DNA from: a virus
Strand: one strand, 5' to 3'
Virus record (IMG/VR): IMGVR_UViG_3300024333_000007
Location: 4,430-68,429 of that record
Length of the DNA: 64,000 nt
Shown here: positions 39,163 to 40,975 of the stretch, piece after piece
How the letters are laid out: each line of letters opens with the position of its first letter
How positions within the stretch are numbered: position 1 is the stretch's first letter
Position numbers and translations under genes: made by a program
The notes under the pieces: generated by a model
Databases searched by the model: none
Seen by the model: the letters and a program-made list of their open reading frames with translations, nothing else
What the model was told of the DNA's origin: nothing

Positions 39163-39759
39163 TTAGACCATCCTATACATATATTCTAAATCACACGAAA
39201 TTTCTTTGTTGTGATATTTTAAGGCCGCACCAACAGTCATGGCCGCAATAACCACTGCTGGCACAACCCAGCTAGGAGTTATTCTATAACCACCATCGGT
39301 TTCGCCCCAACTTGCTACCCTATATGATAGAGTAACATGCGTCCCATCATAACCCGGACTCATATATTTAATATTCTTTTCTTTGCACCACTTTTCAATT
39401 TGCTTTTGTGATTCGATTTTATCAGTACAATCGAAAACCACATCTGGCTTATTAATAACCACATCACCATTAAACCTAAATGGTATGGCATTAACATTTA
39501 CATCTGTCCGTAGATTTTCCAATATCTTTTTCACCAAATGTGCTTTATTTTTGCCTATCATAGAAATTGGTAAATCAAGCCGATTAAGGTTGCTGGCCTC
39601 AATCGTGTCATGGTCAAACAATGTTATTTCCCTTACACCGGACATCGCCAAAAATTTAGATACCCAATATCCAACACCACCACAGCCAACTACAACTACA
39701 CACATATCGGTTTTTAGTCCGATATTCTTTTGCCTGTCATAAATTATCATGTGTGCCAT
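39163..39759 (-). CDS. E1-like ThiF/MoeB adenylyltransferase
   Basis: YDRQ, VVGCGGVG, DHDTIEASNLNR, GKNKA, DCTD. Confidence 0.92.
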   Translation of the reverse strand: MAHMIIYDRQKNIGLKTDMCVVVVGCGGVGYWVSKFLAMSGVREITLFDHDTIEASNLNRLDLPISMIGKNKAHLVKKILENLRTDVNVNAIPFRFNGDVVINKPDVVFDCTDKIESQKQIEKWCKEKNIKYMSPGYDGTHVTLSYRVASWGETDGGYRITPSWVVPAVVIAAMTVGAALKYHNKEISCDLEYMYRMV

Positions 39760-40646
39760 CCTCCCAGTGTTTGGTTTAATAAGGCACTTTCCGCTATTTC
39801 GCGGCTATTTTGATTTTGGTTGCGTTGTGCACTTGTAGTTGGCGCGGTGTATGATAATACTTTTCTTTTTAGGCTGCTAAATCTAGGTAATCCCCGGGGT
39901 GATGTGTTGCCCAGAGAACGCTCGTTTATAGTTCCAAGCACTCTAGACGCCGTCAGTGCTACATTTAACACATCCTCCGGGGTGTTAATAATGACATCCT
40001 GATAATGAAAAGTACCCCAACAGTCATACATACCAGTTTTATGATAATGATTAAAAGAATCCAATGTAAGTGTTTTTGTTGTGATGCTCAAAACACTTGA
40101 TTCCCTTGTTTCTATACTAATTATTATTGGTGTGGATATTTTTTTCCTTATTGTGGTAGGAATTTCTTTTCTTATAGAACTAGATCTGCACAATAATGTA
40201 TCGGGGCTATATATTGTTATATACAACCAAACAATGTTGCCGTCGCGGCCCTTATAAATTGATAGGCCCCTTTTCGCCATCGAAAAATCTATATCCGGCA
40301 TAAGAGCACAACTATTATATTTTTTGTTAAGCTCTTTGGTCATTTCGTCGTAGTTCTTAATAGTCTGAATAGCAAATTCTTTGAACATTGCTATTTCATC
40401 ATATATCATCCTTTTCTCAGACTCTATCTTTTCATCATAAATTTTTTCATATTCCTCTCTTATTTGGTCTTCCAAAGATGGGGACCCAGAAACAGCCACC
40501 AACTTAAAACATTTACCACCTACTTTAAGTATAAAGTTATCTGTTTCAAAATCAATGTTTTTTCCAGATTTCCGGGTATTAACATTACTCCTGGCTATTT
40601 CTGCCATGCGAACAATTTGGTCAATACTTTCATCCGATAAACCCAT
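39747..40646 (-). CDS. Putative prokaryotic E2-like (UBC-fold) conjugating enzyme with N-terminal coiled coil
   Basis: FNHYHKTGMYDCWG (HxH-x6-CxG) followed by a helix and LGTINERS; lies between Ubl and E1. Confidence 0.6.
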   Translation of the reverse strand: MGLSDESIDQIVRMAEIARSNVNTRKSGKNIDFETDNFILKVGGKCFKLVAVSGSPSLEDQIREEYEKIYDEKIESEKRMIYDEIAMFKEFAIQTIKNYDEMTKELNKKYNSCALMPDIDFSMAKRGLSIYKGRDGNIVWLYITIYSPDTLLCRSSSIRKEIPTTIRKKISTPIIISIETRESSVLSITTKTLTLDSFNHYHKTGMYDCWGTFHYQDVIINTPEDVLNVALTASRVLGTINERSLGNTSPRGLPRFSSLKRKVLSYTAPTTSAQRNQNQNSREIAESALLNQTLGGWHT

Positions 40647-40676
40647 TAATTTTGTCCTTTCGTTGGTTGAAATATG

Positions 40677-40713
40677 TGGGCATGTCTGGCCGATTGTTGG
40701 TCAGACATGCCCA
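40677..40713. other. Strong 17-bp hairpin between the Ubl and E2 genes
   Basis: tgggcatgtctggccga-ttg-ttggtcagacatgccca. Confidence 0.8.
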
Positions 40714-40723
40714 ATTGAGTAGT

Positions 40724-40975
40724 TTACGAAGACGCGGGTGTATCATAAGCGAATATACGAATTTTCATATTTTCGCGTATGGTTTCCGGCGCGTCTTCCT
40801 GATCGACGATCTCGTTGCTACCCAAAAAGACCCTAAACTTGCTATAGCCGGCCTGGTTGGCCAGCCCAATAGCCGTTTCAATAAAACCATCCCCCACTGT
40901 TAGTGGAATAGTGGCACCATTAACAACAGCAACGGGCCCGCCATCACCAACCACGTCCGCATCATCAAACCACAT
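40724..40975 (-). CDS. Putative ubiquitin-like (beta-grasp) protein
   Basis: 83 aa, beta-beta-alpha-beta-beta-beta pattern (VAVVNG / IETAIGLANQAG / FRVFL / EIV / MKIRIFAYD) with short tail TPASS; GGGAG RBS; first gene of the E2-E1-JAB cassette. Confidence 0.65.
   Translation of the reverse strand: MWFDDADVVGDGGPVAVVNGATIPLTVGDGFIETAIGLANQAGYSKFRVFLGSNEIVDQEDAPETIRENMKIRIFAYDTPASS

Follow-up and report, generated by a model that had tools for sequence, protein, structure and literature searches.

A probable ubiquitin-type protein-tagging cassette with a minimal E1 in uncultured T4-like phages

What could an E1 do that lacks both the zinc site and the crossover-loop Cys, and how could a ubiquitin-like protein (Ubl) be activated if its own chain ends in -TPASS? 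These questions are raised by four genes on the minus strand of a 64,000-nucleotide stretch of viral DNA, here called the window (IMG/VR record IMGVR_UViG_3300024333_000007, positions 4,430 to 68,429). The four open reading frames (ORFs) are closely packed and, as translated, encode in order of transcription a Ubl, an E2-like protein, a minimal E1 and a JAB/JAMM metallopeptidase; the E1 ORF overlaps the E2 ORF by 13 bases, and the JAB ORF begins 2 bases past the E1 stop. That this cassette serves protein tagging (conjugation) is highly likely. The explanation that best accounts for the evidence overall, which we put at slightly better than even, is a phage-encoded conjugation cassette in which the Ubl, a UBC-like E2, the minimal E1 and the JAB peptidase would act in the steps described below. 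The parts concerned are these.

40724..40975, minus strand: Ubl precursor, 83 amino acids, beta-grasp-like (translation; ribosome-binding site AAGGGAG upstream)
40733-40735, minus strand: codon for Ala81 of the Ubl (translation)
39747..40646, minus strand: E2-like protein, 299 amino acids (family conservation, AlphaFold2 (AF2) model, fold matches)
39858-40319, minus strand: predicted UBC-like domain of the E2-like protein, residues ~110-263 (AF2 model)
40020-40022, minus strand: codon for Cys209 of the E2-like protein (translation)
39163..39759, minus strand: minimal E1, a ThiF-type adenylation domain of 198 amino acids, or 195 if the start is Met4 (Pfam ThiF)
39286-39288, minus strand: codon for Tyr158 of the E1 (translation)
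38528..39160, minus strand: JAB/JAMM metallopeptidase, 210 amino acids, with E42, H85-S-H87, S96 and D99 (family alignment, profile against Rpn11)

The four genes recur together. A degenerate DNA pattern for the E2 motif FxHYHx5DCWG led to 5 viral and 28 metagenome loci, and a profile of close E1 relatives led to 80 further viral loci; iterated hidden Markov models (HMMs) were run on the six-frame ORFs of 115 sources, made up of the fetched loci and the window's own 7.5-kb stretch. The Ubl, E2, E1 and JAB families are all present in 56 of the 115 sources, and their order is Ubl-E2-E1-JAB in 51 of these; in the remaining five the order is unchanged, but hits are split or doubled. One metagenome contig (L017, 388-7081) holds two complete, divergent cassettes in tandem. 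Among 50,697 GenBank phage records none encodes the E2 (tblastn, E<=0.01), and the cassette has no blastn match among GenBank phages. k-mer seeded searches with the Ubl and the E2 returned the window's own fragments only, and searches for relatives in viral contigs seeded by the window's E2, P0003 or P0004 returned nothing. Of the four proteins, only the E1 matches Pfam or PADLOC; the window's Ubl, E2 and JAB proteins have no match in either library (for the E2, 0 Pfam families at E<=1). PHROGs holds no match for the Ubl or the JAB protein and one weak match for the E2, phrog_35750 (E 0.046). No description of such a phage cassette was found in the literature, in which relatives might be listed in the supplements to the Bub, Bil and cGAS papers.

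The sequence of the E1 places it within the E1-like superfamily, the ThiF/MoeB/Uba adenylation domain: the Pfam ThiF model (PF00899) matches at 1e-31, with 110.3 bits against a cut-off of 28.1, and the best matches of the E1 profile in the PDB are ThiF (3e-20) and Uba1, while BubCD is matched at 1.8e-11. The sole defence models in PADLOC that match the protein are the Cap2-type 'E1-E2' models (up to 2.8e-17), and the PHROGs that match it have no function assigned. The adenylation residues R9, G25xGGxG30, D49, N57, R60, K72 and D113 are invariant, also in a MAFFT alignment with E. coli MoeB and ThiF. In the comparison with these two enzymes, both CxxC pairs are missing, together with the second half of the crossover loop, where MoeB and ThiF have their Cys, and the phage E1s end ~30 residues past the crossover loop. 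The window's E1 has five Cys residues, C20, C26, C111 (in the motif DCTD), C125 and C189; there is no CxxC anywhere, and SWGETDGGYRITPSW (residues 150-164) is without Cys. Canonical or ThiF-type E1 chemistry, with its crossover Cys and two-CxxC zinc site, would thus appear not to be that of this protein.

The traits of the window's E1 are also those of its relatives. The E1 family comprises 391 clusters at E<=1e-10, and conservation was counted in the best 120 relatives. The nearest relatives (P0113-P0131) have 53-59% identity. C111 is the only invariant Cys (120/120), and there is no Cys at residues 140-168 in 103 of the 120. Among forms shorter than 240 amino acids, 75 of 76 have no CxxC after C111. 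Consequently the absence of CxxC pairs and of a crossover Cys, which the earlier note had read from the window, is borne out by the translation and by the relatives, and judged on these alignments it is a family-wide trait, no single-sequence quirk. The other 44 relatives are longer, being extended at the C-terminus by at least 40 amino acids, and 41 of the 44 have at least one CxxC there; because of this distribution, the zinc-less state is assigned to the short clade of which the window's E1 is a member. The long forms of ~300-340 amino acids (P0189-P0231) have a C-terminal extension of ~100 amino acids, and two or more CxxC are found in 35 of the 44. Such an extension may be a zinc module that has no counterpart in the window's short clade. 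The pattern scan for the E1 also drew ORFs of ~850-1040 amino acids in viral contigs L104, L108-L110 and L114-L118, four of them named GVMAG; these align with the first part of the E1 only and carry TES(Y)-type motifs like those of large eukaryote-type E1s.

The E2-like protein has 110 relatives at E<=1e-3 in a full HMMER scan of 1.84 billion representatives, and residues P117, Y201, H202, C209, W210, G211, S244 and P250 are invariant in all 68 aligned members. A single-sequence AF2 model of the 299-residue protein had a mean predicted local distance difference test (pLDDT) value of 35.8 and was superseded by a model made from the 68-row alignment, with a pLDDT of 84.5 and a core above 90. This model has an N-terminal hairpin and long helix (residues ~1-112), followed by a predicted alpha/beta UBC-like domain (~110-263). 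When model residues 109-267 were compared with VIA-align, all 50 matches listed were UBC-type E2 enzymes or complexes holding one (Z 5.4-6.4; root-mean-square deviation 4.0-4.8; 116-125 residues aligned). In a wide VIA search, where the long N-terminal helix drew most of the matches, 7 of the 50 rows fell on the UBC-like domain, and all of these were E2 entries (Z 5.6-6.0). A feature match in the Atlas to Prok-E2_D, with a score of 0.86, is a lead only.

In the canonical E2, an HPN motif lies ~8 residues before the catalytic Cys, and a Trp follows it (10.1101/2022.03.31.486616). The phage protein has H200-Y-H202, then six residues, then D-C209-W-G, and in the model this motif lies after strand 184-191 and before helix 223-236. 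By sequence and model, it carries the E2 catalytic pattern, a Cys ~8 residues after an HPN-like motif. A distant cassette (L083, 1807-3000) has an E2 with the plain HPN...C motif in place of H-Y-H...C-W-G.

How, then, might the Ubl move from this E1 to this E2? The 198-residue E1, probably a homodimer like ThiF and MoeB, would adenylate Ala81 of the Ubl, as its intact adenylation residues suggest. A thioester on the E1 itself is unlikely, because no E1 thiol is conserved outside the buried DCTD motif, and this motif, with its C111, is common to E. coli MoeB and ThiF. The first thioester would instead form on the invariant Cys209 of the E2, and we regard the absence of an E1 thiol step, with the E2 Cys as the first thioester, as moderately probable. 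As to the route, direct attack of the E2 Cys on the E1-bound adenylate is plausible by analogy and is slightly favoured over a relay through Tyr158; taken by itself it is a possibility that falls somewhat short of even. The analogy is with Cap2, of which the C548A mutant is reported still to conjugate in vitro, its authors concluding that the E2 Cys is able to take over its role (10.1101/2022.03.31.486616).

The end that would be adenylated has to be considered next, since the chain does not stop at Ala81. The window's Ubl ends ...IRIFAYDTPASS, and its tail AYDTPASS, given in the earlier note, is confirmed by translation and by the codons GAT ACA CCC GCG TCT TCG TAA. A model of the Ubl in the ESM Atlas (pLDDT 0.67) resembles ThiS-named clusters with a template modelling (TM) score of 0.65-0.75, which is a lead only. 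The earlier note had proposed that homologous tails be aligned for a conserved Ala or Gly position, and such a position was found. Of the 58 distinct tails in the family, 55 have the motif [FYV][DEN]x[AVP][G/A] at the close of the last beta-grasp strand; the motif ends in Gly in 51 of these and in Ala in 4, of which the window's tail is one. The chain stops at this Gly or Ala in 34 of the 55 tails and goes on by 1-6 residues in 21, the extensions seen being A, V, L, I, R, LV, LS, AE, VE, SK, LAE, RANR, NVNP, NVVLV, MDCFCV and AIILCQ. The other three Ala tails (L049, L076 and L018) all end at the Ala, with no extension. In a tree of 30 E2 proteins, the window and L018 are on long branches of uncertain placement, and Ala may have arisen once or several times. 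Because the window's Y-D-T-P-A-S-S aligns column by column with Y-D-V-P-G-L-S of a relative (L014), and because of the motif in the 55 tails, Ala81 is shown by alignment to sit at the family's reactive Gly position, with Ser82-Ser83 as an apparent extension; the Ubl would be made as a precursor, ...YDTPA|SS.

The fourth protein of the cassette is the candidate for removal of this extension. Its residues H85, S86, H87, S96 and D99 are invariant, and E42 nearly so, in 11 aligned members, and an intact E...HSH...S..D JAB is found in all 56 complete cassettes. The family profile matches Rpn11 (E 3e-4) with the catalytic motifs aligned, the gap between H87 and S96 being 8 residues, one more than in Rpn11. 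By these motifs it belongs with the JAB/JAMM zinc-site enzymes. In one clade (L003 4637-6232, with L016, L022, L026 and L029), the JAB lies in a stop-to-stop frame of 397-531 amino acids; in L003 it is at the C-terminal end (residues 362-450), after an N-terminal part of ~300 amino acids of no assigned role.

Published work provides the precedents. It is reported that the cGAS proteins of Cap2/Cap3 operons have Gly or Ala as their last residue, and that a G-to-A change lowers conjugation and does not abolish it, while G-to-S, V, R or W does abolish it, a terminal Ser also abolishing thioester formation (PMC10097602). The removal of Ala98, which follows the reactive Gly of E. aridi BilA, is ascribed to BilC (10.1101/2023.09.26.559546), and the JAB domain of BubCD is described as cutting directly after the Gly of BubA (PMC11601596). 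Two background statements of the earlier note, that CD-NTases (cGAS/DncV-like nucleotidyltransferases) can be conjugated through a C-terminal Ala or Gly and that JAB proteases trim Ubl precursors, are borne out by these accounts. Since extensions are common in the family, and since Gly or Ala ends and JAB trimming have both been published, trimming by the JAB after Ala81 is the natural reading. Trimming at this point is likely, and its assignment to the cassette's own JAB, which would take off Ser-Ser and expose Ala81, is well supported by comparison. The proposal that JAB removes the two Ser residues thus stands in part: Ala81 is in the reactive column and a JAB is in every complete cassette, while the cleavage itself is the presumed step. 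With Ala81 exposed and the Ubl carried by Cys209, the E2 might finally hand it to lysines of host or phage proteins, and the N-terminal helical part of the E2 could be a target-binding module; both of these suggestions are speculative.

Several observations weigh against this account. The fold match of the E2 is middling, with Z < 8, and such a Z alone is no proof; Foldseek of the E2 model against the PDB found nothing at E<=1e-3, and no Pfam E2 family is among the 25 most-matched of 144 families (68 members). The crossover loop of the E1 contains a Tyr, residue 158, which is invariant in the best E1 relatives (120/120); of 85 viral E1 ORFs aligned, 76 have a residue at this position, in every case Tyr. 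This residue, overlooked by the earlier note, might serve as a nucleophile in the manner of Bub, and the transfer would then be a three-step relay. The window is also the sole tail of the 55 that joins Ala with an extension, so that its Ubl could be impaired, and the Ala codon, GCG, is without support from independent reads, the run contigs leaving 40724-40745 uncovered. Finally, the activity of the whole family is read from comparison.

The relay through Tyr158 is the strongest of the other explanations. The crossover Tyr158 of the E1 would take the Ubl as an oxyester and pass it to Cys209 of the E2, giving a mixed oxyester-thioester cascade. The Bub E1s are described as having no crossover Cys and one invariant crossover Tyr, and the substitutions Y370F and Y342F as abolishing product (PMC11601596). 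In the phage E1s, Tyr158 lies 4 residues before an invariant P-S-W-x-x-P, and G157, P162, S163, W164 and P167 are also invariant or nearly so. The MAFFT alignment, however, puts Tyr158 on the Tyr that E. coli MoeB and ThiF have within their first CxxC knuckle, and very distant viral E1-like ORFs keep a Tyr in the same column, so it may be an old structural residue. The likeness to Bub Y370 is by description only; the E1 profile is nearer to ThiF than to BubCD, in HMMER alignments that stop short of the loop; and the E2 nucleophile here is a Cys and not the Ser of Bub. Taken together, these points leave the Tyr relay rather unlikely, and direct attack by the E2 Cys is the route slightly preferred here.

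A second alternative concerns the tail: the terminal Ser83 might be activated as it is, or the Ubl might be a crippled copy, with Gly changed to Ala and residues added, that is no longer conjugated. The unique combination of Ala and extension would fit this, as would the codon, since GCG is one base away from a Gly codon and has no read-level confirmation. However, in the CBASS work (PMC10097602) it is the terminal Ser that is reported to abolish thioester formation and conjugation, whereas Ala is tolerated, and in three other tails of the family the chain stops at an Ala in this column. Wherever extensions of 1-6 residues occur, a JAB lies beside them, and the other three genes of the window's cassette are intact, with all catalytic motifs kept. 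An untrimmed or crippled Ubl is consequently improbable, and trimming after Ala81 is the reading carried forward.

The carriers ThiS and MoaD end in Gly-Gly. A sulfur-carrier role, in which the E1 would adenylate the Ubl for conversion to a thiocarboxylate (as ThiS, MoaD and TtuB) used in cofactor or nucleic-acid thiolation with no protein tagging, could draw on ThiF as the best solved relative of the E1 profile, on the ThiS-named clusters that the Atlas Ubl model resembles and on source annotations that call some E1 relatives tRNA-modification enzymes or adenylyltransferases, but it is very improbable given the fixed presence in the cassette of a JAB and of a UBC-like protein whose Cys is invariant, no sulfurtransferase recognised among the cassette genes or their near neighbours, and a tail with a single Gly or Ala, often extended, in place of Gly-Gly.

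The relation of the cassette to the known bacterial systems can now be drawn. It would work like the Bil, Bub and CBASS (cyclic oligonucleotide-based antiphage signalling system) conjugation systems and is a member of none, because the Bil E1 and gene order, the Bub Ser E2, fusions and BubE, and the Cap2 fusion acting on the CD-NTase are not matched. With Bub Types I and II, as described (PMC11601596), the phage cassette shares a homodimeric-type single-domain E1 with no crossover Cys and an invariant crossover Tyr, and a scheme that includes no E3; with Type I it shares a JAB, which in the phage too would make the reactive Ubl end. However, the Bub E2 nucleophile is Ser, whereas the phage cassette has its invariant Cys; the Bub proteins are joined as BubAB, BubCD and BubBD, whereas the phage has four separate ORFs; and Bub lies on bacterial islands, whereas the phage cassette is in lytic-type T4-like phages. 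The size of the phage E1, ~195 amino acids, is a further difference. DUF6527/BubE (PF20137) has no match in the 68-kb record, a fragment, and none in the E. coli K-12 record.

Bil Types I and II, according to the accounts available (10.1101/2023.09.26.559546; 10.1101/2023.09.04.556158), have a Ubl, a Cys E2, a JAB and an E1, as the phage cassette does, and the Bil JAB pre-processes a Ubl that has a residue past the reactive Gly (10.1101/2023.09.26.559546). BilD, however, is a large tandem E1 with inactive and active adenylation domains (IAD-AAD), a mobile CYS domain, a catalytic Cys and a four-Cys zinc site, none of which is found in the single-domain phage E1, and the gene order is Ubl-E2-DUB-E1 in Bil (DUB, deubiquitinase) and Ubl-E2-E1-JAB in the phage. 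Type II CBASS with Cap2 and Cap3 resembles the phage cassette, as far as described, in its Gly or Ala end and its JAB-type partner (PMC10097602; 10.1101/2022.03.31.486616) and in an E2 Cys that can work in vitro without the E1 Cys (10.1101/2022.03.31.486616). Cap2, however, is an E2-E1 fusion with a crossover Cys, unlike the separate phage proteins, and its substrate is the CD-NTase itself, where the phage cassette has a beta-grasp-like Ubl. ThiF and MoeB, of the ThiF/ThiS and MoeB/MoaD pairs, are the closest solved relatives of the E1 and share its adenylation residues; their partners are small beta-grasp proteins, and that of the phage E1 is small and beta-grasp-like. In ThiF and MoeB, however, there are two CxxC pairs, the crossover loop is longer and a C-terminal region binds the Ubl, all of which sets them apart from the phage E1, and their systems have neither an E2 nor a JAB.

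The surroundings of the cassette indicate what kind of phage carries it. The IMG/VR record has 68,429 bases, with a completeness of 29% by CheckV, and the stretch is present in eleven runs labelled lake water metagenome, ten of which may be its source; no RNA run is listed as containing it. Upstream (5') of the cassette are a 240-residue ORF and a clamp-loader gene (phrog_168, 5e-61), and a clamp-loader gene precedes the cassette in several relatives too (e.g. L003). The large terminase has 36-37% identity with the gp17 proteins of Caulobacter phage Cr30 and cyanomyoviruses. Because of the nearby clamp-loader gene and the likeness of the terminase, the region is identified, from these similarities, as the replication module of a distant T4-like phage. 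Two further features of the cassette DNA are these.

41002..41029, minus strand: promoter-like site TTGACT, 16 nucleotides, TG-TATACT, 5' of the Ubl gene (consensus scan, 10/12 matches)
40677..40713, minus strand: strong RNA hairpin between the Ubl and E2 genes (fold energy, shuffles)

The promoter-like site is a pattern match only, in a region with 31 such sites against 21.7 expected. The hairpin has a fold energy of -24.7 kcal/mol (z -7.0), with 0 of 200 shuffles equally stable, and may act as a partial terminator or stabiliser.

Directly after the JAB gene, a 112-residue ORF (38176-38514, minus strand) matches the C-terminal part of phrog_4889, 'polynucleotide kinase/phosphorylase' (1.7e-10). 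Two genes 3' of the cassette is a Ro60-like protein of 550 amino acids (36153-37805, minus strand; Pfam TROVE 2e-24, with a weak Ro60 vWA). The two genes hint at an RNA repair or quality-control cluster; Rfam at gathering scores found two tRNAs only in the whole window, and no Y RNA by the Ro60-like gene. A 249-residue ORF (35288-36037, minus strand) carries, in translation, a DPPY motif, which is typical of N6-adenine DNA methyltransferases.

Bil, Bub and CBASS Cap2 have been studied as anti-phage defences. In the phages described here, uncultured T4-like forms that make up a widespread group, the same set of tools is a constant component; their spread is seen in the 56 complete cassettes fetched, the 391 clusters of the E1 family and the 110 representatives of the E2 family. 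The parts are not covered by the function labels of PHROGs, and the E1 alone is known to Pfam, as ThiF, and to PADLOC, through the Cap2-type models. The main interest lies in a natural cysteine-less, zinc-less mini-E1 paired with a cysteine E2, and in a Gly/Ala reactive end with variable extensions. The chemistry would lie between two known schemes, the E1 being cysteine-less as in Bub and the E2 having a Cys as in Bil and eukaryotes. This E1/E2 pairing makes it simple to ask whether transfer needs an E1 thioester, or a covalent E1 step of any kind, and the natural Gly/Ala variation, with and without extensions, is a ready series for studies of E1 and JAB specificity. A tentative reading joins all of these parts: T4-like phages may carry the smallest known complete ubiquitin-type machine, in which an E1 of ~195 amino acids only adenylates, the tag passes directly from the adenylate to the Cys of a UBC-like E2, and a JAB matures a tag ending in Ala or Gly, the whole being used early in infection to tag host proteins, for example those of defence, or the phage's own replication proteins. 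If this were true, the Bil, Bub and CBASS systems of bacteria would have in this cassette their counterpart among viruses.

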